Part shown: positions 9,201 to 47,261 of the stretch, one piece after another
How positions within the stretch are numbered: the first letter of the stretch is position 1
Layout of the letters: every line of letters starts with the position of its first letter
NCBI GenBank assembly: GCA_043805415.1
Contig: JAZDHZ010000034.1
Span: forward strand, 101,478-165,477
Direction: 5' to 3'
Length of the DNA stretch: 64,000 nucleotides
From: Candidatus Omnitrophota bacterium
Lineage (GTDB): Bacteria; Omnitrophota; Gorgyraeia; B26-G9
The notes under the pieces: model-generated
Databases searched by the model: none
What the model was told of the DNA's origin: nothing
Seen by the model: the letters and a program-made list of their open reading frames with translations, nothing else
Translations under genes and position numbers: made by a program

Positions 9201-11184
9201 GAATCCTGATTTGGCGCAGGCCCTGCGGCAGGCATTAAAAAATTATCAGGTAGAATATGCCGGTAATGATGAGGAAAAAATCATTAATCCCAGCGGACTG
9301 GATAAAGATTTATTATATGCGAATGTGAATTTAATCCGCGAAAAATTACTTAACCTTGATTACCAACAGTTAATCAAGGAAAATTATCCTGCTTTGAATA
9401 ATAAACTTATTGCTGAGTATATGAACAGGTCGGGATGGTATTCCGCGGCAGTGCCAAATAAAATAGCGCAGACTTTGCTTAATATCGCGGTTTTACCTGG
9501 AAATCCAGAGTCTGTTATGGAAAGTCTTACCACTATTCTTGGCCACGACAACACTATTAGCGGGGAAAAGCGGGTATTATTAGATCAGGCGTTTGCCAAT
9601 GCCGCCGCGATTGCTCATGACTCGGTATTTAGAAAAGGAGATTTGTTTGTCTTAAACAAGTTTAATGATCCTGAAGCTAATCAGAAGGTGCTGTCTTTTG
9701 CCCGGTATATGGGAAATGGCAGAAAGGCGATGGTAATCAGTAATTTCAATGACTCGCGCATTAACGGAACCCTTTTGCTCAATCAGCATAATTTTGACAA
9801 AATATTTAATATCTCCAGCACTCCAGGCAGTTATTATGCTTTGATTGACAGGGTAAGCGGAGAAATATACCTGCGTGAAGGAAAAGATTTGATCGCGCAT
9901 GGTTTGTATTTTGATCTTCCGGCTCAGTCCACGCATGTTTTTATGGTTCAGAGTTTACAGGATAATACAGCCAATGTTTTGCGGTCTAAATGTAATTATT
10001 ATAATGGCAAATCTCTGCCGCTGGAAGAAATTCTTTCGCTATTAAATAATTTTGGGCTGACTTTGGATTTTCCCTGTGTGGGAAAAACAGCGCGGGCTTT
10101 TGTTCTCCAGGGTCTTTTAAACAATGTTCCGGCAAATCAATTGATCCAGGCTTTTAAAAACAATCCGGAAATCAAGATAATCGAATTTGGGTTAAACCCG
10201 GCGGAAATCGCCGCTGAGATTAGCAAATTAGCGCAAGAGTATCAAGCTGATAAGCAAGTTCAGGCTTTATGCCAGGGCCTGCGGTTTTTAAATCAAAGAG
10301 GAGCATTAAATGAAATAAATCTTGTCCTGGTTTTAAATCAGGACAAAACATCAGTTGAGGCTGTTCAGTATTTTGATCATGGTTCAAAAAGCAGGAAAAG
10401 TTATTTGTATGTTAATTTGTCGCGGCTGAATCTGGATTCAAATAATAATTCTGAAACTAAACTTTCCGCCGCGTTAATAATCGGCGCGCGGATATCACGC
10501 CAAGGGTCGATCGCGGATTATGAATTAAGCCGAACCCTTAAAGCATTTTTAGCGCTTTGGGCGCGAGACGACGCGACTTTGCCAGGGTTAATCGACAGTG
10601 AACACAAAAGGATAAAAGGCATGTTGGAATATCTTGAAACAAATCTTAATTCAGTAATAGATGAATGGAAGCTGCCGTTTCATTATAACCTGGGACATGA
10701 TACGCTGTTAAGCCACTCTTTAAGGCGCGTAGTCATGGATTTGTTTTTAAAACAAAATACTGATAATCAAGTCAGTTTAGCCACTGTGCATAATTTTGCT
10801 TATTTCTTGGCGTATTATTTGGCTGATTCCGGACAGGCAGATAAGCTTCGCGATATTTTGCTTCAAGGATTTTCTGGAAAAAAAGCATCTTTTTATGAAC
10901 AATATTTTCTTACCAGCTTTATCTCCGGAGCACTGGTTTTAAGGGACAGCAGCATAGACGCGATTTTTATTGATTTACTGGAAAATCCTTTGCCGCAAAC
11001 GGATCTTGCCTTGCGGGAAAAAATTATAAAAACAATGTGCGGTCTAAACCGTTTTGATTTAAAATTAAACAAAATCTCAGTCAAAGAGTTGGGGGCGGTT
11101 CTCCAATCCGGCAAAGCTATTGAATCACTTCCTGAGGCAACAGTCGCGATCAGGCAGTATCAGGCGATTGGACAGGCGATTTAA
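6256..11184 (+). CDS. giant secreted protein (1642 aa): an N-terminal GH77 4-alpha-glucanotransferase (amylomaltase-type) catalytic domain fused to a C-terminal region of about 900 aa with unknown function
   Basis: Signal peptide. GH77 signatures: GDIPFYV, GAPPDQYDREYGQNWGGTPY, GIRIDHFRAL, AEDLGS and GTHDTQT. The C-terminal two-thirds has no recognisable motif. The C-terminus ends in the conserved IGQAI. Confidence 0.8.
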   Translation: MFFRKRNSYRVKITTFIILQCFIIINSQSIFAQEQRIVLSRQQTSTLSPHLSIGMNLIQAIFSEKSQQPIAASNLPGTLISLRDTGSIKELLSGKDVFLNDLWARKTLGVPTAISSLRSEDNNFDLWDWGKGDMGESSRQHILWLAKNGFSRWMRLPNRKTRALFGDPSPYASRSAFAGEDSDIAVPEVEEFINSKQAQAWYEQNKNRIKDLHNANRVNGMEVARLKNEALWLAMEYFKENHLNKNTSRGKAFDSFLNDKDNDWVSEYAEYMAISEYYWDTKKAVFFEINEDIWSNIDQKLKGLVHDLNVAISTDKIKDVGRLYEMIDDFFAQYYQNSIVANETDIFRLNIYQSLLDKIKQGILKDLVRGNIKSLVEADEPECAKILLDGYERSKQAFRYDIKDAIGQECMADWRNWDNAGLVERDPIVLAQFREKLEDKILFHKYAQFIFNEQEKNMKEFANSNGIAIEGDIPFYVSTISCETWVYKDKIFRLDPKNRYQQMADSGAPPDQYDREYGQNWGGTPYYINAAFKQFFYKRTKHELKNADGIRIDHFRALNDFWVIPHGKLGRDGKFEDGPKDELLQPLLNLALGQFKRFFAEDLGSYLEGVWDLMRDNEVKGFRVAIFGHGDDDDIVHRQYSGQIAFSGTHDTQTWFGAWNQWDSVKRRIFLDRFTHDDIPEIWQRLTSEQRKGFLKYLNYLVKQLKADTANINKHSEFQSESKDFFTENNFKTQLKKVRVITRSLVDLEELPFGVQTAVFGILAFSEADTVFLPMQDIFRQGEEFRINVPGRPGDWGYRHPYTGQELNKAINEEIKKADELMRLLAQTSGRDVSVPLYKKGQGVHILGVSPGVNAKKMCKPGEEFIIWAAVQGDKPAKVNLLTNMPEHNGAYPKEQAVAMELVKELKSGTYLYGVRIRATQPGKWGVAVEADNVRAGEVKENTSLVVSALDKIAPLAKEQEAVLRIAAGISKEKLQRILNELNPDLAQALRQALKNYQVEYAGNDEEKIINPSGLDKDLLYANVNLIREKLLNLDYQQLIKENYPALNNKLIAEYMNRSGWYSAAVPNKIAQTLLNIAVLPGNPESVMESLTTILGHDNTISGEKRVLLDQAFANAAAIAHDSVFRKGDLFVLNKFNDPEANQKVLSFARYMGNGRKAMVISNFNDSRINGTLLLNQHNFDKIFNISSTPGSYYALIDRVSGEIYLREGKDLIAHGLYFDLPAQSTHVFMVQSLQDNTANVLRSKCNYYNGKSLPLEEILSLLNNFGLTLDFPCVGKTARAFVLQGLLNNVPANQLIQAFKNNPEIKIIEFGLNPAEIAAEISKLAQEYQADKQVQALCQGLRFLNQRGALNEINLVLVLNQDKTSVEAVQYFDHGSKSRKSYLYVNLSRLNLDSNNNSETKLSAALIIGARISRQGSIADYELSRTLKAFLALWARDDATLPGLIDSEHKRIKGMLEYLETNLNSVIDEWKLPFHYNLGHDTLLSHSLRRVVMDLFLKQNTDNQVSLATVHNFAYFLAYYLADSGQADKLRDILLQGFSGKKASFYEQYFLTSFISGALVLRDSSIDAIFIDLLENPLPQTDLALREKIIKTMCGLNRFDLKLNKISVKELGAVLQSGKAIESLPEATVAIRQYQAIGQAI

Positions 11185-11185
11185 T

Positions 11186-14100
11186 ATGTCAGGAATTTTT
11201 AAAACTAAAATTTTAAATAGATTTCTCTGTCTGGTTATTTTGCAGATATTTCTTGTTTCCAATTTTTCCTGGGCCGCGGATGATTTGCGCGCGAATGATT
11301 TAGTTTATTCCAGCGCAACGCTTTCTCCTTCGCTTCAAATCAGCGCTGATGCGCTAAAACAATATTTTGCCCAATCCTTTGATTTAAAAACCGCGGCAAA
11401 TATAGATCCGGTTATAAAAGATATTTGCTTAGAGCTGTATAAGGCCAAGGATAAAACCACAAAAATAGAAGTTCTGGCCCTTGAGCAAGGCTATAGAGTA
11501 AAGATCAGGACTCAGAGCAATACGCCGCTTGTTTTACATTGGGGGTTTAATAATTGGCAAAAGCCTTTTAAGGAAATCTGGCCCCAGGCAGAGAATATCC
11601 GCACTTATTTTGATGAGCAGACCAAAGCAATGCGGACCATAGTCGAGGCTTCAGCTGAGGGAGATTATGTTTTTAATATTGATATCCCCTGGGAATTAGT
11701 TTCAGGAATAAACAATATTGATTTCACCTTCTTTTGCCCAGAAACCAAAGAATATAAGAAAGCAATTGAAAATAAGGATTATGTTGTGCCGGTTTCTAAT
11801 GTCTTGAACCTGGCCTTGGCGCGCTTGGCTGAAAATGCCGGGGCAGATGATCCTGAAAAAAAGCACGATCTGCTTAATTTGATAAACAAAAGGCTGGCTG
11901 CGGCCAAAGATTCAGCGGAAATAGATGAAAACAATATTCCTTTGTTTTATGACGCGCATGAAAATATTATTACCCAGATTGTGAAAAACAAAGCAGGAAT
12001 CAGAATTGATTTCTGGGTTGTAAGTAATGAGCCGCTGGTTTTACATTGGGGAATAAATGATTGGCAGTTGCCGCCAAAAAGCATTTGGCCGGACCGGACA
12101 TTATATAAAACCCGGGCTTATGAAAAAAAAGCAGTGCAAACTCAGATGCATTTGGCTTCTAAAGACGGTTTGTACCAGACCTCGATTTACATCCCTAACC
12201 AGAATTTAAAAGAAGTTAAAAACATCAAGTACAATGTACATTATCCAAATAATGGGTATTGGGATAATAATAATGAAGAGGATTATAGTTTATCGCTGCA
12301 AGCCCAGGATCTTATAGCCGCTTTGCTGCCTTACGCGACAGGCAGATTCGCTGCCCACATAAACGCCAAACAAGCTCGCGGCTTGTTAAAGAACATGGCG
12401 TTTTTCTACGCTGAGAATATGAATTACACTGATTTGTTAAAGCTTTTTCAGGGGATGGAAGGCATTGCCCCTGGGGATGATCTTGAAAAAAAAGATGTTT
12501 TGGGATTAATCCTTATTGCCAAATTAATGAACGAAGGCGCGGTTTGGGATAGTGACAAAGCTAAGATTATTATCAGTAAACAAAAGATCAGCGCCGCGAT
12601 AGCGGAGTTGATTGATAAACTTGACCCCTTAAGTGTGCAGTGGGCATTATATATATTCGGACTGCTTGACCCTTCCTGGGTCTCAATCCTTACGCATCAG
12701 CTTGATTATAAGCAGATATACCAGGATGTGCAAAACAGCAAGATCAAAGACCTGCCGAAATTTATCCAAGGGATAATCAACAGTTATGATGATTTGGAAG
12801 GAGCGCCGCAGGTTCTTTCCGCTGAGAGTATTGATGAAACCTGCCTGATCATAAAATTGAAATTCAATGATCAGATCATCAGTACAAAATGGGGCTATCC
12901 GACAAAACAGCAAAAGTATTATTATCAAAATGGGATTTTTGAACTAAGAGATTTCGGGGGAAATGAATTTTCGCCGGTAGGCCGTAAGCTTTCGCGTTAT
13001 GTGGATAAAGAAGTGATAAAAACCCAGATCTCCAGGCTGCGTGGCAAAGGCAAAAAGGCGATTGTTGACGGAATTTCCTGGCAGTCTCCGGAAGCGCTTA
13101 ATTCGGATAATTATATGTATTATCATCATAGTCTGCTGGAAAAAGACGCGGATGTCAGGAATTTATTGCTTTCCCGTGGTTCTTCCACGATCTTAGAACT
13201 TCCGGACGGGAAAAAAGCCTGGGTATTTCATCGGCCTGATTCATCAGATCAGCTTTCGCCTAATCTTAAATTCGGAACAAAGGCAGCGGAATACTGGAGA
13301 AATTATTGGCTGGAGTATTATAAATATTTTATCAATGAATTTGACGTGGATGGATTCAGGGTGGATTTACCCGGAGAGTTGAATCATCATGGAGATTATT
13401 CGGTATTTAAGAGTGTTTGTTTTGATATAGTGCGGTACGCGGCGGCAAAAGGCAAAAAAATATATTTTATTTTAGAAACATATCATGGGTACGCGAATAT
13501 CTGGGGCTGGGATGAGTTTTCCGCGTTAAATCATGATCCGCAGATAGCGCAATACGGCTATAAACCTTTCCGCTGTTATTATAAGCCGGTAATGACCAGT
13601 ATTTACCGCGGCAGCGCGTTTGATCTAAGAGCTGCTTTTGAACGCATAGCCGGCAGTGTTCAGGAATTGGTTATTTCAATTACTAATTTTGACGAGAAAA
13701 AAGCCGAGGATATTATTCCTGAAAAACAAAGGCTTAAGCGTTATATGGAGCTTTTGTATAATTTTGCCCGCGCGGGATTTGATGTAATGATTTATTTACG
13801 GGATTTAGGTCTGGGCGATATTTTGCCGATGTGCGGCGGAGATCGGGTTCTCTGGGGCGGAAAGCTGAGGGTTGTGGCGCATAAGCCGGCTACTCCGCGT
13901 CAGTTTCGGCAGAGATTGGAGCAAAGCACAGGCGATTTGCTTGAACAATCTCCTTTATATCAGGCGTTTAAAAAATCGCCGCAAAGCCCCTTATCGCGGC
14001 TGTTCTTCCGCGGCAATAAGTTAGTTTTTTATCAGCCGGGAAAAACTCCGGAAGTGTTTGATCTGGATAAGATGGCTAAGCCTGCTCCACCGGTAAAAGT

Positions 14101-15142
14101 TATGGACAGTGAGGAGGATATAAATATTTGGCTGCAGCAGCAGGTTTATTCATTAACAAATAATGAGCCGCAAACCCAAGCCTTAAGAGAAATTGAAAAT
14201 ACTTTAAAACGATTTAAGCATAGTGCAAGTGCAATGGCGGGAAAAGCTGTTTTGGCTCTGGTCTGTTCTGAGACTAAGAATTTCGCGGTTTGGGATCAGG
14301 CAAAAGGCCAAACTCAATGCCTGCGCATGCCGGTAAATAAAGTATTGGCCATAAAAAATGACCATGCTTTTGTTGTGGATATTAAACAAGCTGGCAAAAG
14401 CGAATCCCGCAGAATCCCGGCGCTGCAAATCAAGCAAAGCGGCAAATATTTGGCAATGGTTTTTGGCTTGGCTCCGGGTAAATACAGGTTTAATTTTTTG
14501 TGGCAGGAAAAACATGAAAACCAGGGCTGGGAAGAAGGCAATGGCTATGAGCTTGAAGTCAGTTCTCCGAAGACCGGGCAACCAGAGCTGGCGGTCTATA
14601 TCCCGCGTTTATCCGCTGAATATTTAAGGGATTGGGATGAAATGTTTTATCAGGCAAAAGATGCTGGCCGCAATCTGCTGACCGGAGATATGCTTACAAA
14701 GGGAATGCTTGAAAATATAGAATCCTCGATTGATTTTACCCTGCGTTATGAGTATGGCCGGGAGATTTTAGAACAAATTAAAGACAAAAAGAAAAAGCAG
14801 GTTTTCAATATTTTATATAATCAAATTTCGCAAAACCCGCGAGGCCGATACAGTTTACTGCATCATCACCATGAAAAAGATTTTTTTAAATTAGCGGAAA
14901 CTGTGCTTGAGAGTATCCCGGGTTTAGCAAGACCAGAGGCAGCCCCAATATGGCAATATTTGGACGCGCTCAAACAAGCGGATAATCCTGACCAAGGAGA
15001 ACAAAGCCAAATAGCCGTAAATATAAAACTGCTTGGTTTTATGTCTGGTTTGTTCGCGCAGATCGAAGCCCTGTCCGCGGCTAAACCCCTTGAGCTTTGG
15101 CTTAATATTGAAGCGGAGTTTTTGATTGGACAGGCAATATAG
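11186..15142 (+). CDS. giant secreted protein (about 1318 aa) with two tandem starch-binding-like repeats (LHWG(F/I)N(N/D)WQ motif, CBM45/CBM25-like) and a GH13-like region (DVDGFRVDLPGE, ILETYHGY); putative alpha-glucan-active enzyme
   Basis: The start is the ATG at 11186, 2 nt after the stop of the previous gene. The listed ORF start at 11120 overlaps that gene and has no RBS. Motifs were recognised by eye. The C-terminus ends in LIGQAI. Confidence 0.5.
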   Translation: MSGIFKTKILNRFLCLVILQIFLVSNFSWAADDLRANDLVYSSATLSPSLQISADALKQYFAQSFDLKTAANIDPVIKDICLELYKAKDKTTKIEVLALEQGYRVKIRTQSNTPLVLHWGFNNWQKPFKEIWPQAENIRTYFDEQTKAMRTIVEASAEGDYVFNIDIPWELVSGINNIDFTFFCPETKEYKKAIENKDYVVPVSNVLNLALARLAENAGADDPEKKHDLLNLINKRLAAAKDSAEIDENNIPLFYDAHENIITQIVKNKAGIRIDFWVVSNEPLVLHWGINDWQLPPKSIWPDRTLYKTRAYEKKAVQTQMHLASKDGLYQTSIYIPNQNLKEVKNIKYNVHYPNNGYWDNNNEEDYSLSLQAQDLIAALLPYATGRFAAHINAKQARGLLKNMAFFYAENMNYTDLLKLFQGMEGIAPGDDLEKKDVLGLILIAKLMNEGAVWDSDKAKIIISKQKISAAIAELIDKLDPLSVQWALYIFGLLDPSWVSILTHQLDYKQIYQDVQNSKIKDLPKFIQGIINSYDDLEGAPQVLSAESIDETCLIIKLKFNDQIISTKWGYPTKQQKYYYQNGIFELRDFGGNEFSPVGRKLSRYVDKEVIKTQISRLRGKGKKAIVDGISWQSPEALNSDNYMYYHHSLLEKDADVRNLLLSRGSSTILELPDGKKAWVFHRPDSSDQLSPNLKFGTKAAEYWRNYWLEYYKYFINEFDVDGFRVDLPGELNHHGDYSVFKSVCFDIVRYAAAKGKKIYFILETYHGYANIWGWDEFSALNHDPQIAQYGYKPFRCYYKPVMTSIYRGSAFDLRAAFERIAGSVQELVISITNFDEKKAEDIIPEKQRLKRYMELLYNFARAGFDVMIYLRDLGLGDILPMCGGDRVLWGGKLRVVAHKPATPRQFRQRLEQSTGDLLEQSPLYQAFKKSPQSPLSRLFFRGNKLVFYQPGKTPEVFDLDKMAKPAPPVKVMDSEEDINIWLQQQVYSLTNNEPQTQALREIENTLKRFKHSASAMAGKAVLALVCSETKNFAVWDQAKGQTQCLRMPVNKVLAIKNDHAFVVDIKQAGKSESRRIPALQIKQSGKYLAMVFGLAPGKYRFNFLWQEKHENQGWEEGNGYELEVSSPKTGQPELAVYIPRLSAEYLRDWDEMFYQAKDAGRNLLTGDMLTKGMLENIESSIDFTLRYEYGREILEQIKDKKKKQVFNILYNQISQNPRGRYSLLHHHHEKDFFKLAETVLESIPGLARPEAAPIWQYLDALKQADNPDQGEQSQIAVNIKLLGFMSGLFAQIEALSAAKPLELWLNIEAEFLIGQAI

Positions 15143-17668: not shown

Positions 17669-20600
17669 ATGTATTTTAAAAAGCTCGAACTCTTTGGATT
17701 TAAATCTTTCGTTGATAAAACAACTCTTATTTTTGAACCAGGCGTAACCGCGATTGTTGGCCCCAATGGTACAGGAAAAAGTAATATTTCTGACGCGATT
17801 AAATGGGTATTGGGAGAACAAAGTGCCAAGTCTATGCGTGGGGCAAAGATGGAAGATGTTATTTTTAATGGCACAGAAACCCGCCCTCCGGTAAATATGT
17901 CAGAAGTTTCGCTGACGCTTTCTAATGAAGAAAGAGTTTTGGCGATTGATTATGATGAAGTAACTGTAACCAGAAGGCTTTATCGCTCAGGAGAAAGTGA
18001 GTATCTTCTTAATAAAACCCCGGTTAGGTTAAGAGATATAAATGAACTATTAATGGGCACTGGCATAGGCACGGAATCGTATTCTTTGCTCGAGCAGGGC
18101 CGGATTGACGCGATTATTAGTTCCAAGCCGGAAGAACGCAGAGTGGTGTTTGAAGAAGCCAGCGGCATTACCAGATATAAGAAACAAAAAAATGAGGCAA
18201 TGCGCAAGCTGCAGGCAACAGAAGAAAACCTTTTACGGGTTAATGATATAATTGTAGAGGTTAATCGTCAGTTAAATTCCATAGCGCGTCAGGTAAGTAA
18301 AGCGCGCCGCTTTCAGGAAAATTTTGATGAACTTAAAACATTAGATACGCAGTATACATACCTTCAATATAAACAGCTTAAGGAAAAAAATGATTTACTT
18401 GCCAGTGAAGAGACTGCTTTTCATGCTGAGCAGGCGGGATTAGAAAAAGAGCTTGCTGTTTTTTCTGAAGAGTTTGACGCCTTAAAAGTAACCCTTTCTG
18501 AAGTGGAACATAATTACAGTCACTTGAACAATCAATTTGTCAGGACTACTTCGCAGATTGAGCAGAATGTTCACGCTGTGTCCATTAATAATGAACGCAT
18601 CCAGGAATTCAGCCAAAGAGTGCGGGATTATAACCGCGATCTGGAAAACTCCCAAAAGAAAATCAAAGAACTGCAGGAGCAGATAAACCAACTGCAAATC
18701 CGGATTTCCGCTTTTTCCGACGAGAAAAGCGCGAAAGAACTTAATTTAAATTTACGCCAGACAACAATCGCGGAAATTGAAAACCAAATAAAACTCGCGC
18801 AAAAATCCGGAGAAGAAAACCGGATCGTGGCGGTAAAATTACTCAGTGAACACGCGCAGATTAAAAATGAACTGGCCAAGCTTTCGGCGAATATCAGCAA
18901 TGCTAACGCGCGCTTATTGCGGCTTAATCAGGAAAAAGCGAAAACTAATCAGGAACGCGAGAAGATTGACGCGGAATTAAAAAGCAAAATAGCGGAAGTT
19001 GAAAATTTAAGAGGTAAGGTTAATAAAGAAGAAGGCGACGCTCAGAATCTTAAAAATAATTATGAAGAGCTTAATACTCAGATAAAAGAGCTGGAAGTAA
19101 ATATCCAAGACAGCAAGCAAGCTTTAGTCGGCTGTAAATCCCAGCTGGAAATGCTGGAAAGATTGAGCAAGGAATACGAATGGTTTTCCAGCTCAGTGAA
19201 ATCATTTATGCTCCAAAAAGAAAACTATCCCGAAGCTTTTGCCGGAGTCCATGATGTACTGGTAAATCTTATGGAGGTAAAGCCGGGATATGAAGTTTGC
19301 GTGGAAACCGCGCTAGCCGAATACTTGCAGGCCGTTGTTGTTGATAGCCGACAAGTGGCTTTAAGGCTGAGAGAATTTCTTAATCAGCATAATATCGGCA
19401 GAATTCGGTTTATTACTCTGGATTCAATTCCGCAAATAGCTAATCAGCAGTCTCAGATTGAAAATACAAAGAATTTTTTAGAAGTAATTACCTGCGATGA
19501 TAAATACGCGAAAGTTTTAGCGTTTCTGGTTAAGAACACTTTTATTTTACAAGAAAATATTTTTGACAATCCGTCAAATCCTTTGACTAATATCAAAGAT
19601 ACGCTGAGTGCTGAGCCAGATGCTTCTGGCTTGCTTGAAGCTGAGCTTTTGTTTTCTTTTAAAACAAACGCGGCCAATAGCGTTAAAATAGTCGGCGATT
19701 TTAATCGATGGAATGCTTCTTTTGACAGTGATCTGGAACGCAAAGACACGGAGCTTTGGCAAAAGGTTCTAAAGCTCGCGCCAGGACGCTATACTTATAA
19801 GCTGGTGGTTGATGGCCAATGGATCATTGACCCGAACAATCCGCTTAAAGAAATAGATGTAAACGGACATGAAAACTCAGTTATCGAAGTGCTGGCAAAA
19901 TCCCAGGATGCTTTGGTTGCTGAGGCTGATAAGCCGGCGGCATTTGATTTTAATTTTCTGGAAACGCTGGTGAGTATGAGCGGCGAGCTGCATTCAACCG
20001 CGGGATTAATCAGCCGGCCGGTTGCTGACCAGACAACAGGCCTGTTTTATCAAAAAGCAAAAATAAGGCAGCTTAAGCAGGAAAGTGTCGGCCTGGAACA
20101 AGCCGTAGTTAAATATAAACAAGAAATCGACACTAAAATCCAGCAGCTTAAGTTTGTGGAAACAGAATTTACTCAATTAAATGATGCTTTGCACGAAGAA
20201 AAGATTAGTCTGGCGAATCGGGACTCGGAAAAATCCAGTATTGAAATAAACCGGAAAAAACTTGTGGATGAGCTTTTAGTCATTGATCTGGAAATTGATG
20301 AAACAACTCTTGATGTTCAGGAGTTTGAAGAAAAAGAAGCGGCTAAGAGAGCTAGGCTGAGCATTGTGGATCAGGAAATAGTCGGCAATGAACAGACAAT
20401 GGCAAGTAATCATCAATTGATCGGGATAAAAAACAAGGAGCGGGAAGAGCTTTTAGTTATTATCGCGGAAATGAAAACAGAATTTTCTTTGCTCAATGAA
20501 CAGGAAGAATCTTTAAATCAGAGTTTTTCAATGCTGTATAATACGCTCAAAGAATTAACCCTGAACTCGGAAGAATTTGTCCGGTATAAGGATGAGAGTA

Positions 20601-21625
20601 TAAAGCGGATCGAGGCGCTGACGATTCAGGTAAGTGAACTGAATAAATCCACGCTTGTCCTTGAGCAGGAAAAAGAAGAAATCGGCATGTCTTTAGAAGA
20701 ATTTAAAGAAAAACGCGGTCAATTATTAAGTAAATTTGAAGATATCCAGAATAAAATAAAAGAAAAAGAAAACCGATTAAATTATACCAAGAATCGGATT
20801 CGCGATATTGATGTTAAAAAAGTCGAGATGAATTTTAAAACCGAGTCATTGGTAAATTCAGCGAGGCAGGCTTATAAAATCGAACTGGAAACCCTGGAAC
20901 TTGAATTGCCGGAAGATATAGACTGGCAGGCGCGGAAAGAACAGATCGATGGTTTAAAAAATAAGATTGACCGGATTGGGGCAGTTAATCTGGCGGCAGT
21001 AGAAGAAGAGGAAGAATTAAGACAGCGCGCTGACTTTCTTAATAGTCAAAGCGAGGATTTGTTCGCGGCTAAGCAGACATTAATGCAGGCAATCCAAAAA
21101 ATCAACCGCACAACTAAAGCGCTTTTTCTCGAGACTTTTGAGAAATCAAAAATCGCTTTTAAAGAGTATTTCAAGCTTTTATTCAGCGGCGGCGACGCGC
21201 AGCTTCTGCTTACCGAGGGAAAAGATGTTTTAGAATGCGGGGTGGAAATCGTGGTGCGGCCTCCAGGCAAAAGACTGCAAAGCATAACCCTGCTTTCCGG
21301 AGGCGAGAAAACGCTTACGGCAATTGCCTTATTGTTCGCGATTTTTAAGATTAAGCCAACACCGTTTTGCGTATTAGATGAAATGGATGCCCCCTTAGAC
21401 GAATCGAATATTGATCGGTTCACCCGGGTTTTACAGGAATTTTTGAAAAGCTCACAATTCATAATTATTACCCATAATAAAAAGACTATTTCCATGGCGG
21501 ATGTTATGTATGGGGTAACAATGGAGCAGCCGGGTATTTCTCGGCTGGTGAGTGTGAAATTCAGCGAATTTAAAGACTCGGATAAATTAAAACAAGAGCT
21601 TATTCCTGAAGAAGCTATAATCTAG
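17669..21625 (+). CDS. smc: chromosome segregation protein SMC carrying an inserted AMPK-beta-type glycogen-binding (CBM48-like) module in the hinge region
   Basis: N-terminal Walker A FKSF...IVGPNGTGKSNI, long coiled coils, hinge (GVHDVLVNL...GRIRFITLDS), C-terminal LSGGEKTLTAIALLFAI...VLDEMDAPLD signature. Confidence 0.9.
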   Translation: MYFKKLELFGFKSFVDKTTLIFEPGVTAIVGPNGTGKSNISDAIKWVLGEQSAKSMRGAKMEDVIFNGTETRPPVNMSEVSLTLSNEERVLAIDYDEVTVTRRLYRSGESEYLLNKTPVRLRDINELLMGTGIGTESYSLLEQGRIDAIISSKPEERRVVFEEASGITRYKKQKNEAMRKLQATEENLLRVNDIIVEVNRQLNSIARQVSKARRFQENFDELKTLDTQYTYLQYKQLKEKNDLLASEETAFHAEQAGLEKELAVFSEEFDALKVTLSEVEHNYSHLNNQFVRTTSQIEQNVHAVSINNERIQEFSQRVRDYNRDLENSQKKIKELQEQINQLQIRISAFSDEKSAKELNLNLRQTTIAEIENQIKLAQKSGEENRIVAVKLLSEHAQIKNELAKLSANISNANARLLRLNQEKAKTNQEREKIDAELKSKIAEVENLRGKVNKEEGDAQNLKNNYEELNTQIKELEVNIQDSKQALVGCKSQLEMLERLSKEYEWFSSSVKSFMLQKENYPEAFAGVHDVLVNLMEVKPGYEVCVETALAEYLQAVVVDSRQVALRLREFLNQHNIGRIRFITLDSIPQIANQQSQIENTKNFLEVITCDDKYAKVLAFLVKNTFILQENIFDNPSNPLTNIKDTLSAEPDASGLLEAELLFSFKTNAANSVKIVGDFNRWNASFDSDLERKDTELWQKVLKLAPGRYTYKLVVDGQWIIDPNNPLKEIDVNGHENSVIEVLAKSQDALVAEADKPAAFDFNFLETLVSMSGELHSTAGLISRPVADQTTGLFYQKAKIRQLKQESVGLEQAVVKYKQEIDTKIQQLKFVETEFTQLNDALHEEKISLANRDSEKSSIEINRKKLVDELLVIDLEIDETTLDVQEFEEKEAAKRARLSIVDQEIVGNEQTMASNHQLIGIKNKEREELLVIIAEMKTEFSLLNEQEESLNQSFSMLYNTLKELTLNSEEFVRYKDESIKRIEALTIQVSELNKSTLVLEQEKEEIGMSLEEFKEKRGQLLSKFEDIQNKIKEKENRLNYTKNRIRDIDVKKVEMNFKTESLVNSARQAYKIELETLELELPEDIDWQARKEQIDGLKNKIDRIGAVNLAAVEEEEELRQRADFLNSQSEDLFAAKQTLMQAIQKINRTTKALFLETFEKSKIAFKEYFKLLFSGGDAQLLLTEGKDVLECGVEIVVRPPGKRLQSITLLSGGEKTLTAIALLFAIFKIKPTPFCVLDEMDAPLDESNIDRFTRVLQEFLKSSQFIIITHNKKTISMADVMYGVTMEQPGISRLVSVKFSEFKDSDKLKQELIPEEAII

Positions 21626-21657
21626 CCGATTATTTGATTATCCCCGCGAACCGCGAA

Positions 21658-22851
21658 TCAGATAAATTCTGTGCTGAACATGCACACCCGATTTCTTCCG
21701 GTTTCTTTAGCTACATACAGAGCCTTATCAGCAAAAGCAATTAAATCATCTTTGTTCGAGGCATCCTGGGGAAAACTGGCGACTCCGATACTGATCGTGA
21801 TTCTTTTGGAAGGTTGTCCCTCTTTATAATGGCAAGGGTGAGCGGCAGTTAATTTTCTTATTCGCTCAGCAGAGGAATAAGCTTTTTCTTTAAATGTTTC
21901 CGGCAGAATAATCGCGAATTCCTCTCCGCCATAGCGGGCGACCAGATCAACTTCCCGGCAGGTGGACTGGAGAATTTCCGAGATTTCCTGCAATAATTTA
22001 TCTCCGGCCAAATGCCCCAGGCTATCATTAAATTTCTTAAAATGATCGATATCGATCATTAATAAGCTGACATGGCGGTTAAACCGGTTTGCTCTTTTAA
22101 CTTCTTCCGCTAATTGGTGCTGAAAATATCCATAGTTCCAAAGACTTGTCAGGCGGTCGGTGTTGGATAAGATAAGGGTTTTTTCAAATTCCTGAGAGTT
22201 GCCGATTGCCAGTCCGGCATTATTGGCAAACATAGTCAGTTTCCAGATATCATCTTTGGTAAGATCTCTTTTGGAATAGAAATTATCAACCAGCATTACT
22301 CCGAGAACCCGGTTTTTTGCCATTAAAGGAATCGTCAGACCGTATTCCATATTAAATAAGGAGATGATCGGGTCGTTTTTTTAAATTTGTTTTTTATACG
22401 TAGGGGTTATTATCTCAAACTGTTTTTTCTGAAGCACTGTTTGGGCTAAAATTCCCGAACTTGGATTAATCGGCAGCTTGATATTTTTAACATTATTATT
22501 AAAATGCGAATCCTGTTTGCGGCCGAATTCTTTATAATCTTTTAACAGCTCCTCAAGAGTTTTATGCGTGTTTTCAATAAACTCCCAAATATTTTTCGCG
22601 TCAGCTTCTGAATCAGGGCCAATACCCATCCGGCCTTCCAGGATATTTTCTTTCTCATTAACCAGAAAAACCATAGCCCGGTTAAACCCCAGGCCTTCGC
22701 CGGAAGTAACACTGGTAAGAATAATGTATAAAATTTCATCCAGCCTGAGAGTCGAGCTCATGGCCATGCTGATTTCATAAAGCATCAGCAGTTCGGCGTG
22801 ATATTTATCTTGTAGGTTTTTCGGTGTTTCTTCGATTGACATAGCCTTCAT
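21658..22851 (-). pseudogene. GAF-GGDEF diguanylate cyclase gene interrupted by a single in-frame TAA (complement of 22381-22383). GAF is split across the stop; the GGDEF domain has an intact GGEEF motif.
   Basis: The two minus-strand ORFs (22851->22381 and 22350->21658) are in the same frame and separated only by one TAA. The GAF domain continues across it (..KKQI*KNDPIISLFNMEYGLTIPLMAKNRVLGVMLVDN). GGDEF motifs: RYGGEEFAIIL and DHFKKFNDSLGHLAGD. Confidence 0.6.
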
Positions 22852-29257: not shown

Positions 29258-32200
29258 ATGAATTATAAACAGAAATCAAAATTCAGGCTGATATTTAGAG
29301 TCATTGCCAGCGTGCTTTTACAGGCATTTTTATTTACAAATTTTGCCTGGTGCGGTGCTGATCAGTTTATTCAAGGCAATACTGTTTGCGCGCCGGCAAT
29401 TAGCAGTACAACTATTTCTCCCGCGATCCAAGTCACTGAAGCTTCAATTCAAACTCTTTTTGTTCAATCCGCCGCGTTCCAAATGGGCAAAAGAGCAGAG
29501 TTTAAAGGCCTTGATTCTTTAAAGCAGGCAGAAGTGGAAAATGCTTTAGGCGATAAATTTAGTTTAAGCCTGAATCTAAAAGGAAAGCTAAACACCGCGT
29601 CAGTTATTCAAAATATCGAAAAAAGAACAGATATCAAAGCGGATTATAAGAAGATCCTAAACGCGATGATCCTTGAATTCGGCAAACTGGATGTTAAGTT
29701 CTATTCATATGAGACATTAGTTGAGGACTTGTTCGGGTTTGCTTCTGCTGGCAATAAGATGATCGCGATTCATTCCTCGGTATTCAGTAATCCGATTGCT
29801 CAGACGCATGAAATCGGGGAATTCTTAGCGCAAGCAGGAATGCTGAATTTTTCGCTTGGCCAGGATGACCAGCTATTGATCAGCTTAAATGGCAGTTTAA
29901 TCGGCAGGATAAAATTATCGGAAGATGCTTTGGCAATCGCGAAGAAAGATCCGTCCAGTAACCATTATTTGCTGCGGGCTTTTCAACGGGAGGTTTTTCA
30001 GGATAAGGATCGGGCTTTAACCGCTGGGATTAAAAACAAGCAGGGGGATTTATCTTCCGCGATGAAAATTTTTCTTAAAACCATAAATGCTGAGACTGGA
30101 AACAAAGTTGAAGCAAGTATGTCTTTGTCTAAACTTAATGACCCGATGTTCGAGGCGCTGTTTAAAGATATTGAGTTTAATCGGTTTTCCGAAAACGATG
30201 CGGCAAAATTAAAGATAGCGATACTATTGCAGAATAACATTGCTATTGAGCCTATTGCTGAACCCTTGCTTCAAGAGTGCGGGATGCTGAATAAGGAATC
30301 CGCTGATCTTTATGAAACCATATTCCCGGCTGCGGGAACTCCTGGTTTTAGCCCAAAAAAATTATTCGCGAAAGAAAATGTTAATCCGGATAATCTGCAT
30401 CTTATCTTTGAATTAGCTAAGCGCTATAGTCCGATTAAAGCGTTTAGCGATAAGTTAGACAGAATCTACCGCGAGCTTGCCTTATACACATTGCCGGTAA
30501 GTCCGGGAGCAAGATATCATATATCTTTGCTTAAAGATCTAAACAGTATTTTATTGTCCGGAGGACGGATTAAAGAATCAAAGCACTCGCTTAGCGGTCA
30601 GGGTGTTTATTTCTTTGAAATGGGAAATTCCGGCTTAGTCAATGCGCAGACACGCTTAGCTGAGTTTTTCCCTTTTATCTCCAGCTCGCCGCATGATCTG
30701 GCAGATGCGGATTATGTGGTTAAGGCGTTCAGGCAAAAGATTGCCCGAGACGCGAAAGATAATGCCCGGATATTCCCGGTTGTAATCCAGGTTGCTGAGG
30801 ATATCCCGGCTGAAGCTGCGATGGGCTGGGCTTTTCGTGAGGATTATAAAAAGGCGGGAAAGCTTATCCGCGATGAACTTAATGCCCAAGAGTATGAATT
30901 TTTAATCAACCTGAATTATTTATATCTTAGCGAGAACCAAGCGGTTAAAAACCATTTGCTCGCGAAAAATATTATTAGAGAAGAAAACGGGATAATCAGG
31001 CTGGTTGATGCTTCGCGGGCGATTCAGGATGAAAACAAAAAGAATACGGGTTGGGCCAGAATGAGATTTGCTGACTTGCGTTATGAAGTGATCAATCTTT
31101 CCTACACAAAGCTGGATAGTGATATCCAGAAGCTTAGCGCCAAGATGGCTCAATTACTCCAGAATCTTCTCGCTGATAAAATGAGCGTATCTTCGGTTGT
31201 GGATACAGGCTCATCAAATCGCGGGCTTACTGTGGAAAATCCGGATTTTGATTTTCTGATTAAAATTAATTCCCCAGAGGATTTTACGGCAATTGTTAAG
31301 CTGCTGCTTGATGAAAAAATATTAGAAAATTTTCTCAAGGAGCATAAAGCTGCTTTTGAAGCGATCTATGGCGATAAGTCCGTGAGTATTGTCACCGAAC
31401 AGCCGCATGCCGTAGGCAAAGGCAATTTATATTTGTTTCCGTTTAAATTTGTCGCGGCTAACCGGATTGTCGGCGGGGTTGATTTTAATTTTTCCAAGCT
31501 TTCAGCGGGAAAAGCCGAGACTTTGAGCTATCACGAGACAGCGCGGCAGCAGCTGCAAGCCATACTGGATAAAGTTCCCGAAGCAGAACAAAAACAGCTT
31601 TCCCGCTATCTTGCCGGAGAAATTAAAACCCTTAAAAAATTAATTATAAATCAGGGTTTATATAAAGATAAGGATACAAAACGAAATAGATTTATCGGCG
31701 TGGCAGTAGAACAAATGATCTACAATCTCAGCGATTATCTGTCTATGCCAAGCAATATTTCCACTGCTGAAATTAAGAGCATATTTTCAATAAAAACCGC
31801 GCTTTATTTAATCAGCCGGATGGAAAGCGAAAGATTAAATGGTCTGTCATTTTCTCTGTATCAAAGAGCAAATGGAAGCGGGTTTTCTAATCAATCGGTA
31901 AAATACGATTTAAGGGATAATGAAAAATCAGTTATCCCTAAAGTTGGGACGGCTTTTGCCGGTTTTAAAGAGTTTTCAGAAGCGGAAAATGCCGGAGTGA
32001 AAAATAAAATTAAAGGATTAATAACTGATTTTATTAGCCGGCCGGGGAATAAGGTAAAAATTATTGAGTTTTTTGCCAGGTACAATAATGAAGTTGACGC
32101 GGCGATTGCTTTAGGTCAGGCGAAACCTTTTAGTAACTGGGAATTTTTTGAAAGATGGGAATTCACGCACCGGTTTTTTACTCTGCATAAAACAGAGATT

Positions 32201-32560
32201 GATATATTCGCGATAGATAAGACTGATATGTCTCAGGACGCGAAGCTGAAAATAGCGGAAATGATCAACGGATTAAAAGCCGGGATAACTGAGTCAATGG
32301 GTGTGAGTGAAGATAAAATTACCGGTCGGGAAATCACGCGGTGGTTTAAAACTCCTTCTTCGCGGAATAAGCAGCTGAGAGATTTTTATTTTCAATATGG
32401 GGCAATAACAGCAGAACCTATATCCATCCTGGGTTTTGCTGGGTTTTTAATGAATATTCCGGCATTGCGTTCGGCAGCTGATGCTGAGCGAAAAGCGGCG
32501 CCTTTAAGCGGTATTATAAACCGCAAGCCGCTCGAACAATTAGTCGGACAGTCAATATGA
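29258..32560 (+). CDS. giant secreted protein (1100 aa) containing a Pol-beta-superfamily nucleotidyltransferase motif. The N-terminal leader is paralogous to the next gene.
   Basis: Leader MNYKQKSKFRLIFRVIASVLLQAFLFTNFAWC. NTase signature VDTGSSNRGLTVENPDFDFLI (GS-x-G...DxD). The C-terminus ends in LVGQSI. Confidence 0.5.
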   Translation: MNYKQKSKFRLIFRVIASVLLQAFLFTNFAWCGADQFIQGNTVCAPAISSTTISPAIQVTEASIQTLFVQSAAFQMGKRAEFKGLDSLKQAEVENALGDKFSLSLNLKGKLNTASVIQNIEKRTDIKADYKKILNAMILEFGKLDVKFYSYETLVEDLFGFASAGNKMIAIHSSVFSNPIAQTHEIGEFLAQAGMLNFSLGQDDQLLISLNGSLIGRIKLSEDALAIAKKDPSSNHYLLRAFQREVFQDKDRALTAGIKNKQGDLSSAMKIFLKTINAETGNKVEASMSLSKLNDPMFEALFKDIEFNRFSENDAAKLKIAILLQNNIAIEPIAEPLLQECGMLNKESADLYETIFPAAGTPGFSPKKLFAKENVNPDNLHLIFELAKRYSPIKAFSDKLDRIYRELALYTLPVSPGARYHISLLKDLNSILLSGGRIKESKHSLSGQGVYFFEMGNSGLVNAQTRLAEFFPFISSSPHDLADADYVVKAFRQKIARDAKDNARIFPVVIQVAEDIPAEAAMGWAFREDYKKAGKLIRDELNAQEYEFLINLNYLYLSENQAVKNHLLAKNIIREENGIIRLVDASRAIQDENKKNTGWARMRFADLRYEVINLSYTKLDSDIQKLSAKMAQLLQNLLADKMSVSSVVDTGSSNRGLTVENPDFDFLIKINSPEDFTAIVKLLLDEKILENFLKEHKAAFEAIYGDKSVSIVTEQPHAVGKGNLYLFPFKFVAANRIVGGVDFNFSKLSAGKAETLSYHETARQQLQAILDKVPEAEQKQLSRYLAGEIKTLKKLIINQGLYKDKDTKRNRFIGVAVEQMIYNLSDYLSMPSNISTAEIKSIFSIKTALYLISRMESERLNGLSFSLYQRANGSGFSNQSVKYDLRDNEKSVIPKVGTAFAGFKEFSEAENAGVKNKIKGLITDFISRPGNKVKIIEFFARYNNEVDAAIALGQAKPFSNWEFFERWEFTHRFFTLHKTEIDIFAIDKTDMSQDAKLKIAEMINGLKAGITESMGVSEDKITGREITRWFKTPSSRNKQLRDFYFQYGAITAEPISILGFAGFLMNIPALRSAADAERKAAPLSGIINRKPLEQLVGQSI

Positions 32561-32602
32561 ATATTCTCTAGGGCAATATGATTGGGTAAATGGAACAAGA
32601 TA

Positions 32603-35600
32603 ATGAATTATAAAAAATCAAAATTCAGGCTAATCTTTAGAATAATCTCATTAGTGCTTATCCAGGCATTTCTGGTGCTTGATTTTGCCTGGGCAATAGG
32701 CGGAGAATTTCCTATTGCTGATAAAATTTCTCAGGCTGCTACGCTTGCCCCGAAAATTAGTTTAAACACTCAGGAAGTCTGGGATGCTTATGTTTACAGT
32801 TCGCAAAATTCAGCTAAGATCAATGAACTTTCCTTACCTTCTGATCAGCCGATGGTTAATATTCCCAACCAATCTCCCCTGATCAGCCGGAGAGCGTTTT
32901 TCAAAACTGTTGGGCAAAAGGTTATTGGGGCTGCCGCGGTATTAACCGGAGCGGATCTGATATTGTCGGCGCCGGCAGAAGCCAGAGACTTAACCGTGGC
33001 TTTAAGCGATTTAGTGATCAATTTTGATAAAGGGGTTGCTGAAGCGGAGTTAAATAAATATATCGCGATTATTGAAGCTCAGGGTTTTAAAGAGTTATAC
33101 AGTTTAGAAAAAAAACAAGCGCAGACATTAATCAGAATTAAGGGGTTATTCCCGCTGAACGCGGAAAAATTATCTTACGCGCTTAATGCTCAGGCTAAAG
33201 CCAGAGGTCTGGCCAAAGGGTTTGTGGTCACAGCTAGTGACGCGAGCTGGAAGCAATCGCTTACTTATCGGAGCATGCAGGCTTTTGCGAATAAAGTAGC
33301 GCGTCTTTCAGCCAGCCTGGGATTCGGGGAGATCGATTCTCCGCAGCTTATTGGGCTTTATGAGGGGATTACCTGGGTTGAGAGTAAATTTAACCAATGG
33401 GAAACCGATGCCCAGGGCAGAATCAGACCAGTAAGGTCATATACCAATGCTATCGGAGTTACCCAGGTTATAGAATCTCAGGCTGTTAAGCAGATTGCCA
33501 GGTGGATAGTAACGCATAAGGGTGGAATATCCCGCTACGCGGAAATCATGAATGAGCTGGAAAGAATGATTTCCTCTGATAGTGAAAAGCTAAAGAAATC
33601 ACTCAAGGCGAATAAGAAATTCGGGGAAGAAGCCGAAGCCCTGAAACAGTTTAATGTCTATGCTGATTTCGCGGCTTATAAAAATGCCGGATCAGATATT
33701 GAAAAACAAAAACAGATAATTCAACGAATTCACAGAAAGATCAATAGTAATCCTAAGCTTATCGGCGTGAATTTATATTACGCGCTTGCTGTTTGGCAGT
33801 ATTTACAAAACAGGAATAATCTGCGAGCGGGAGTTACCGCTGAGCTTGCCGAATCAATGGGGCAAACCGGACAAGGGCTGACCAGAAAAAATCTTCCGCT
33901 TATTGAATCCGGTTCCGGGGCATATCAGCCAATGGATCTGGAAAAAGCCGGCTTGCAGTTTGAGAGTGATTATTTCCGCTTAAATCTGCTTTATCAAATG
34001 ATTAATCCCGAGAAGATTGCTGAGCTTTTGCAAGGCGCGGAAAGTAAAATATTAGTCAACACCATGGAATACTTATCGCGGCAGATGATGACAAAAATAG
34101 GCAACCAAAAGCTTGGCTATACTTATCTTACGCTGAACTGGGATCGATACCGCCGCCTGGAACTAAGGAAAAATAAAAATAATCAATATGAGTTTACCGA
34201 AAGGCCTTTAAGTTATTTTCAAAATAAGCCTAATGGTTTTTCCGTGAGTCTTGCCGCGGCAGCTTCATATAATTCCGGGACTGGCAGTGTGGACGATGCT
34301 TTGCTGAATTTTGGTAATGCCGTAGACGCGAATAATCTTCCCTTATGGATTAAAAATATGATCGGAGCCAATCCCCAAAATATTCGGGAGCCGATAAATT
34401 ATTTAAGGGTTTTTCTGGAAGATAAGTTTAATAATACCGGAGATCTCTCGGCCCAAGAGCAAAAAATTAAAAACGAGCTTATTGCCGAACGCTATAAACG
34501 CGTTTATAAAATCCAAGACCGATTGCTGGAAAAAAGAGCTTTAATCCACAAAAACAAGGTTCGGATATACGCGGCTTATCGGCGCGATGATGGTTTTGAT
34601 TATAAGCTGGCTGCCTGGGTTGCCCAGATCGCGGGCAGTGATTATGTGGATAGTTTTTTAAGAACCCATGGATTGGATAAAAAATGGCAAGAGGAAATTC
34701 TTAAATCTTCCCAGACACTTGATATTTTAGCACCGGCTTTGGCAGATGTGAATTCGCCGGGATATGCTGCCGCGGTAAATATCCGGCGGTATTTAGATTC
34801 AAAACAGCTGGCTTCTTTGGCTAAGCGGCAAGAAGCCTTTAAGTCTAAAGAACAGGCCCGGATCGCGAGAATTGAACTGGCTAAACAAATATCTAAGGAA
34901 AAACAATGGCAGAAAACCCTGGAGGGAATGACCAGCTGGGCAATGCGTTCCACGGTCGGGGTTGCTTCGCTTGGCGCGGCCGGCGCGATTGCCTGGATTA
35001 TAAACCGCAGGGTCAAGCTGGGTAAAAAACCAGTGCCTTCGCTTATCTATCGGCTGCCATTGCAGGGTTTTTGGATTCTGGGATTTGTTACTGTCCGGCT
35101 GTTCGCGATAGTTGGAAAAATTCTGTTTGGAACCGGTAAATATGTATTCAGCTTTTTTGCTAAAGCAAAACCGCGGATAAATAAACCAAGAAGCGCGCTT
35201 CTTGCCGATCAAAAGGTAGTTAGAAATAACCGGGTTAAACAAGCGGAAAACAGATATAAAAATAAGAACCGCTTTTTTTCAATAGCTAATTTAAAAAAAC
35301 TGATTCTGGGATCAATCTTACTGGCAATAATTGCCTGGCCTTTTGCTTCCCCGGCTTTTTCTCACGCGTCGCAAAAGCAGGCACAAGCTCCTCCGGCAAT
35401 TAGTTTAAGCCAAGAATTTAAAAAAGGCTTAATTGAAATCAGTAAGAAAAGTGACCATAAGCAGCTGAATGCTCAGGGCGAGCTTACCACAATAAAAGCT
35501 AATTTAAAAAAGAATCTTGAATTCAGCAATAGCAAAGCCCGGGAAAGGGTAGAGCAGATCAATCAGTTAGCGGAAAGAAATTGGCAAAAAGCGTATGTTA

Positions 35601-46819: not shown

Positions 46820-47251
46820 GGGGGTGAAGGGTTTCGACTTATGTGGATGTTATAAGGGCAGCATGTCGAGGTGGTCGGGAGGCCTCGTTAAACACCTGGC
46901 AAAATAATAAATGCTGAAACTAAAGTTCCAGTAAGTGTAGATGCACTTCTTGAGAGAATTGGATCGGGCATTGCTCATCCGACTTTCACAGGATTTGTAC
47001 CTGCAGCAGTGTTACTTTAATAAAATAAAGTAACCCGTTTTTTGGCCTTTTGTCTGGGGGGTCAGAGAACGTCATTTACAGGCTCGCTTTACCTGGTTGG
47101 TTTTTGACAGGTAAGGTTAAACACTCAAAAGCTGCCTGTTTAAGTACCTCGCCTATTGGGGATTTAAACAGAAAGATAAACAATAGGCTAAACATGTAGA
47201 TACTCTTATTTGTCGCTTAAGGACGCGAGTTCGATTCTCGCCACCTCCACC
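46820..47251 (+). ncRNA. ssrA: tmRNA (SsrA)
   Basis: 5' GGGGGTGAAGGGTTTCGAC pairs with the 3' end GGACGCGAGTTCGATTCTCGCCACCTCCACCA (tRNA-Ala-like acceptor/T-arm). GCAUGUCGAGG..GGCCUCGUUAAA resembles the E. coli pseudoknot-1 region. The internal tag reading frame ends in tandem TAA TAA (47018-47023) and is located immediately after smpB. Confidence 0.85.
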
Positions 47252-47261
47252 AAATAAACAA

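Follow-up and report, generated by a model that had tools for sequence, protein, structure and literature searches.

A single-base premature stop codon in an otherwise constrained GAF-GGDEF diguanylate cyclase gene of Candidatus Omnitrophota

The window, that is the whole 64-kb stretch of DNA analysed here, contains a gene for a GAF-GGDEF sensor diguanylate cyclase that is interrupted by one in-frame stop codon. According to the ORF listing and the translation, two ORFs of 156 and 230 aa lie on the minus strand in one shared frame, as an earlier sequence-only reading had stated, and straight translation of 21655-22851 on that strand meets a single internal stop (...TPTYKKQI-stop-KNDPIISLFNMEYGLTIPL...). 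The stop is a TAA at 22383-22381 in minus-strand order, within ACAAATTTAAAAAAACGACC, and is codon 157 counted from the ATG at 22851; the coding strand around it reads ...AAA CAA ATT TAA AAA AAC GAC CCG.... The same reading had placed an A7 run behind the stop. The run is present, but rather than following the TAA it opens with the final two A's of the stop codon itself (22382-22376) and reaches 5 nt beyond it. The features of the locus are as follows.

21658..22851, minus strand: whole ancestral coding sequence of the GAF-GGDEF diguanylate cyclase, 397 codons with a terminal TGA at 21658-21660, as indicated by translation, Pfam and colinear orthologues of 394-397 aa
22850..22879, minus strand: promoter-like site TTGACA-18-TACAAT with 11 of 12 matches, from a consensus scan, overlapping the first ATG (22851)
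22381..22851, minus strand: upstream ORF, 156 aa, spanning the N-terminal helices and the beginning of the GAF fold
22204..22743, minus strand: GAF sensor domain (PF01590, residues 37-216), interrupted at codon 157
22381..22383, minus strand: premature in-frame TAA, codon 157; the plus strand reads TTA, and the changed base would be the plus-strand A at 22383, probably an ancestral C
22376..22382, minus strand: A7 homopolymer, ancestral, also present in the closest orthologue
22351..22380, minus strand: ten in-frame sense codons from the stop to the next ATG (KNDPIISLFN), conserved at the protein level (KNDPVISLFN in the orthologue P0001)
21658..22350, minus strand: downstream ORF, 230 aa, comprising the two final GAF strands, the signalling helix and the entire GGDEF domain
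21688..22164, minus strand: GGDEF catalytic domain (PF00990, residues 230-388)
21946-21957, minus strand: RxxD inhibitory-site motif (REVD), intact, residues 299-302
21916-21930, minus strand: GGEEF active-site motif, intact, residues 308-312

With the stop masked, the joined protein matches the Pfam GAF family over residues 37-216 (27.3 bits against a cut-off of 22.4, profile positions 2-133 of 133) and the GGDEF family over residues 230-388 (174.9 bits against a cut-off of 23.8, E 1.4e-51, profile positions 2-161 of 161). Codon 157 therefore lies inside the GAF domain, where the first reading of the letters had put it. The GAF match needs the joined sequence: the 156-aa half, scanned alone against Pfam, matched no family, and the 230-aa half alone matches, below threshold, just the final ~45 positions of the profile. 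The catalytic signature R299-E-V-D302 LVARY G308-G-E-E-F312 is invariant among 24 to 70 orthologues, with the RxxD motif five residues upstream of GGEEF; in the orthologue alignment R306, Y307, G308, G309, E310, E311 and F312 are invariant, and R299 and D302 are conserved. Because a profile of the family matches solved diguanylate cyclases, for example WspR and PleD, with E-values of ~1e-48 to 1e-44, the ancestral function predicted from the sequence, a diguanylate cyclase that synthesises c-di-GMP, is not in doubt. In an AlphaFold2 model of the intact orthologue P0001 (70-sequence alignment, mean pLDDT 82), residue 157 belongs to a loop with a short helix on either side (150-154 and 161-165). 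Downstream of this site the model has the GAF strands 171-178 and 181-189, the signalling helix 199-230 and the GGDEF domain.

The -10 box of the promoter-like site, which resembles a near-consensus sigma-70 promoter, overlaps the ATG at 22851, and most orthologues are 394 aa long; the real start codon is therefore probably the ATG at 22842, which would give a protein of 394 aa translated from an mRNA with a very short leader, or nearly leaderless. The ATG at 22350 that opens the downstream ORF corresponds in the orthologue alignment to Met168, the conserved internal methionine of the family, and did not evolve as a start codon.

The GAF-GGDEF gene is the sole sizeable minus-strand gene among the ~38 genes of the window. 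It converges on a gene for the chromosome-condensation protein SMC (17669-21625, plus strand), the two stop codons being 32 nt apart, and this orientation is kept in every orthologous locus that shows it. The SMC protein has a domain of its own to offer, an AMPK1_CBM/CBM48-type glycogen-binding domain (PF16561, E 3.4e-13) at residues 667-744, just past the hinge (525-627). Orthologous SMC genes lie at 4248-8195 of L165 and 4244-8191 of L166. PF16561 is also recorded for the SMC orthologue of a further Omnitrophota genome, and the domain is accordingly conserved; a carbohydrate-binding module within an SMC protein is unusual. Two adjacent plus-strand genes elsewhere in the window encode further proteins connected with alpha-glucans, one of 1,642 aa with a GH77 4-alpha-glucanotransferase core (6256-11184) and one of 1,340 aa with two alpha-glucan water dikinase Ig-like N-domains (11120-15142), and they share the C-terminal peptide ...IGQAI. 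Together with the SMC module this pair hints at a glycogen-centred theme in the region. An apparently ORF-free stretch at 11.2-14.2 kb was considered as a possible broken gene or RNA gene and rejected, since the intact 1,340-aa ORF fills it. Two consecutive giant ORFs follow further on, of 1,100 aa (29258-32560, plus strand), for which no Pfam match was found at E <= 1e-4, and of 2,986 aa (32582-41542, plus strand). The G+C content of the window is 39.7%, and its RNA genes are one tRNA-Leu(GAG) and one tmRNA (46820-47252, plus strand; Rfam RF00023, 176 bits). The tag peptide that ARAGORN assigns to the tmRNA is long and atypical (ALLERIGSGIAHPTFTGFVPAAVLL) and lacks the usual ...ALAA-type ending; the resume codon may have been mis-called, or the tag may really be unusual.

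The joined protein matches thousands of relatives, and the top ~35 are proteins of 394-397 aa from Omnitrophota MAGs that are 65-90% identical over their full length; more than 100 intact orthologues of this length exist in Omnitrophota. The two halves are no chance juxtaposition, since single intact proteins align colinearly with both of them (best E 2.7e-239, 90% identity, 100% coverage). In a 24-sequence alignment the stop falls in a variable column with no gap on either side, occupied by K in eight sequences, by A, G and S in two each, and otherwise by E, D, H, P, R and I, while the flanking residues are conserved (KKQI_KNDP.ISLFNM). The closest orthologue, encoded at locus L002 and corresponding to P0001, is 90% identical to the window gene in amino acids and 85.6% in nucleotides. 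At the site it reads AAA CAA ATT GAA AAA AAC GAC CCG, so that the only local difference is a G for the T of the window, and it shares the A7 run (ATTGAAAAAAAC), which makes the run ancestral. The comparison of orthologues that had been proposed as a check on the stop finds a sense codon at all 11 orthologous loci (GAA, GCC, GGA twice, GAC, AGA, AAA four times and TCA), with GAA and identical flanks in the closest and no internal stop in any of them. An uninterrupted frame for the sensor-plus-catalytic polypeptide, unbroken at all 11, is lacking in the window gene. Since the first base of the site codon is G in all five loci nearest to the window gene and L002 has GAA between identical flanks, the most parsimonious history of the site would be a single G to T transversion that turned GAA (Glu) into TAA, equivalent to C to A at 22383 on the plus strand.

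The gene order, namely a HemN-like radical SAM gene, a TPR/peptidase_MA gene and the GAF-GGDEF gene on the opposite strand converging on SMC, is kept wherever the flanking sequence suffices to show it. On this conservation the window gene is judged to be a true single-copy syntenic orthologue and no decaying paralogue, and it bears, relative to intact orthologues at the syntenic locus, the kind of disabling lesion (GAA to TAA) by which pseudogenes are recognised. Exact-product look-ups of both halves and of two neighbouring genes in an index of 153 billion genes returned no match. A scan of metagenome contigs for the site pattern with the codon left free gave no match either, in a collection that evidently does not hold the sample of L002, which itself fits the pattern; when genome and metagenome collections were scanned under guidance of the protein, generic GGDEF patterns saturated the results and no relative closer than 85-90% appeared. 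One apparent second case of a split gene, the 230-aa protein P0036, which has the same length as the downstream half, was rejected as a gene-calling artefact, its frame being open through the site (GAC). It derives from L001 (Logan SRR7067536_23), a chimeric public contig whose SMC fragment runs, at position ~1940-1955 and without a change of orientation, into codon ~59 of GAF-GGDEF. The chimera yields a spurious gene call of 718 aa in addition to the spurious 'GGDEF-only' protein of 230 aa, and could mislead searches for split genes.

No indels separate the window gene from L002 and L003, so that the three can be compared codon by codon with L003 as the outgroup. Between the window gene and L002 dN/dS is 0.067 (0.106 upstream of the stop and 0.051 downstream), which compares with 0.070 between L002 and L003, both intact (0.123 and 0.044 for the two parts). 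For the ten codons that separate the stop from the ATG the values are 0.02-0.09 against L002 and L003 (0.02 against L002). The changes unique to the window branch comprise 47 synonymous and 7 nonsynonymous substitutions (omega ~0.04), where the intact branches have omega values of 0.083 and 0.090 and where neutral drift would be expected to leave ~172 nonsynonymous changes; any unconstrained period would, by a rough Poisson bound, have occupied at most about 4-8% of the terminal branch. Against the consensus at >=85% the window protein deviates in one of 220 conserved columns (I197L), the fewest among the 24 sequences. Neither dN/dS nor the consensus columns nor the motifs revealed a second lesion or relaxed selection in the gene. 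With full purifying selection otherwise and no further lesion, the stop is, judging from these comparisons, the sole lesion, and either very recent or not real.

The explanation that we favour, with a confidence somewhat above even, is that the TAA is a genuine and very recent nonsense substitution and the gene a young null allele, a nascent pseudogene or else a loss-of-function variant that segregates within the population sampled. Proteins of this family have an N-terminal GAF sensor and, behind the long signalling helix, a GGDEF domain for the synthesis of c-di-GMP in which GGEEF and RxxD are present. A coding-strand G to T change would have converted codon 157, which falls in a variable loop on the surface of the GAF domain, from GAA to TAA. 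Ribosomes would then terminate at the TAA and release a fragment of 153-156 aa, without the final two beta-strands of GAF, without the signalling helix and with nothing of the catalytic domain. Provided that the base call is correct and the ancestral base was G, as we infer, this product would presumably be inactive and the allele null. Against this stands the strength of the purifying selection and the clade-wide conservation of the position, which make a fixed null somewhat unexpected.

Recent nonsense mutation and sequencing error had both been put forward when the stop was first noticed, and the single-base GAA to TAA difference in an otherwise constrained gene lends support to the two jointly. 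If the base arose as a sequencing, consensus or assembly error, the codon would in truth specify an amino acid, most likely as GAA, and the gene would be a normal, uninterrupted one for a GAF-GGDEF diguanylate cyclase; we regard this as a tangible possibility, though one well short of even. The complete lack of secondary decay fits an intact gene with one wrong base no less well than a young null allele, and an intact gene would also suit its conservation and synteny throughout the clade. The difference moreover amounts to one base at the junction of a T run and an A run (ATT-G-AAAAAAA to ATT-T-AAAAAAA), and errors of polymerases and base callers are commoner beside such runs. The remainder of the window speaks for the sequence as it stands. 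The assembly looks clean and its genome uses the standard code: ~38 long ORFs of up to 2,986 aa and 85 A/T homopolymers of at least 7 nt show no frameshift, stop or other interrupted gene in 64 kb, the consensus quality appears high, and a random consensus error at this one base is accordingly less likely. Substitution errors that reach the consensus are rare, and just ~4.6% of random substitutions in the coding sequence would produce a stop. Since the 64 kb are without signs of error, surviving substitution errors are rare and nonsense alleles, newly fixed or still segregating, are normal in bacterial populations, a real and recent nonsense allele is the reading preferred here.

Were the mutation real, the downstream half might still be expressed. 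In one sub-case, which we consider unlikely, translation would restart at Met168 (ATG 22350), 30 nt past the TAA, and yield an active, deregulated cyclase of 230 aa that lacks the sensor. The in-frame ATG ten codons past the stop and the downstream ORF with its complete GGDEF domain, GGEEF and RxxD would permit this, and bacterial restarts after nonsense codons are known (reviewed in PMC10666635). In native gene pairs of E. coli and Haloferax, however, a spacing of +14 nt already cuts termination-reinitiation by 40-80%, and at ~+20 to +38 nt hardly any is left (PMC10666635); the gap found here is 30 nt. The ATG is an ancestral internal methionine rather than a new start, and no Shine-Dalgarno-like motif precedes it (cccgatcatctccttatttaat ATG), such motifs being found at 14 of 35 gene starts in the window and at 14% of internal ATGs. 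Within the gene no promoter-like site lies upstream of this ATG on the minus strand, the internal matches (~22152-22123) being located downstream of it, and a fragment missing most of the GAF domain may, going by the structure model, fail to fold or dimerise. A related scenario, to which we give only a slender chance, is that of a natural 'split' cyclase: if the TAA were both genuine and dominant, low-level restart at Met168 or background readthrough of UAA-A could supply a little GGDEF enzyme, sensor-less or full-length, and the nonsense codon would then work as an expression dimmer on c-di-GMP synthesis instead of a full knockout.

Programmed readthrough, or another form of recoding that would make a regulated full-length protein from the TAA-containing mRNA, had been a further suggestion, and it did not hold up. 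In its favour are the frame, which is preserved on both sides of the stop, the full conservation of the sequence downstream, and the base at +4, which is A and not U, the base with the strongest termination (PMC5289835). The youth of the lesion, however, fully explains the conservation, and UAA is of the three stop codons the one at which bacterial readthrough is lowest (PMC5289835). No stop stands at this position in the 11 orthologous loci or in over 100 orthologous proteins. The 111 nt of RNA folded at and after the stop have no stable structure (MFE -14.2 kcal/mol, with shuffled sequences averaging -16.9, z = +0.91), no Rfam element lies near the site and no suppressor tRNA within the 64-kb window, and no account of recoding in Omnitrophota emerged from a literature search. 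TAA is besides the commonest ordinary terminator in the window. Readthrough is on these grounds very improbable, and lists of recoding candidates should leave the site out. The notion of a code in which TAA is a sense codon has the in-frame TAA itself in its favour and nothing else, and its probability is negligible: of 37 long non-overlapping ORFs 19 end in TAA, 10 in TAG and 8 in TGA, large ORFs, 1,318 to 2,986 aa in length, are unbroken, no other gene in the 64 kb has an in-frame stop, and the orthologues were called under the standard code. The hint that the A7 run matters was not borne out, for the lesion is a substitution and no change in homopolymer length, and between ORFs of one frame slippage is neither needed nor helpful. 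Homopolymer slippage or frameshifting was rejected, given the shared frame, the alignment without indels and the ancestral run; translational bypass (hopping) was rejected because the ten codons past the stop are conserved as protein.

The two ORFs should in consequence be annotated as one GAF-GGDEF gene flagged 'internal stop' and never as two separate genes. Should the stop be real, as we favour, an Omnitrophota population would have just lost, or be polymorphic for, one conserved c-di-GMP synthase, a matter of routine turnover among signalling genes; should the base be an error, the gene is to be annotated as an intact sensor diguanylate cyclase. Beyond annotation the importance of the case is small.

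Among known systems the gene belongs with the GAF-GGDEF sensor diguanylate cyclases (PF01590/PF13185 plus PF00990), with which it shares the domain order, the length of 394-397 aa, the GGEEF and RxxD motifs and the long linker helix. The Candidatus Omnitrophota proteins named 'sensor domain-containing diguanylate cyclase' at NCBI are up to 90% identical to it and are encoded in the same neighbourhood. In contrast to these intact orthologues, the window copy alone has an in-frame TAA at codon 157 and cannot, as written, encode the full-length enzyme. An in-frame stop followed by conserved coding sequence in the same frame is also what programmed readthrough and recoding systems display. The known cases, such as the A1 protein of Q-beta at UGA, selenocysteine at UGA with a SECIS element and pyrrolysine at UAG, use UGA or UAG, are conserved among relatives and depend on cis elements or dedicated tRNAs; the stop of the window gene, by comparison, is UAA, is unique to one genome and comes without downstream structure or recoding element. 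The closer parallel is with young unitary pseudogenes of bacteria that arise through a single nonsense change, which like the window gene have one disabling point lesion and retain their position and synteny. Older pseudogenes normally carry several lesions, whereas the window gene has none further and is unrelaxed, which places it at the youngest end of this class, unless the stop is not real. What the sequence shows is an ordinary premature stop, due to one base, within a gene of a well-known type.
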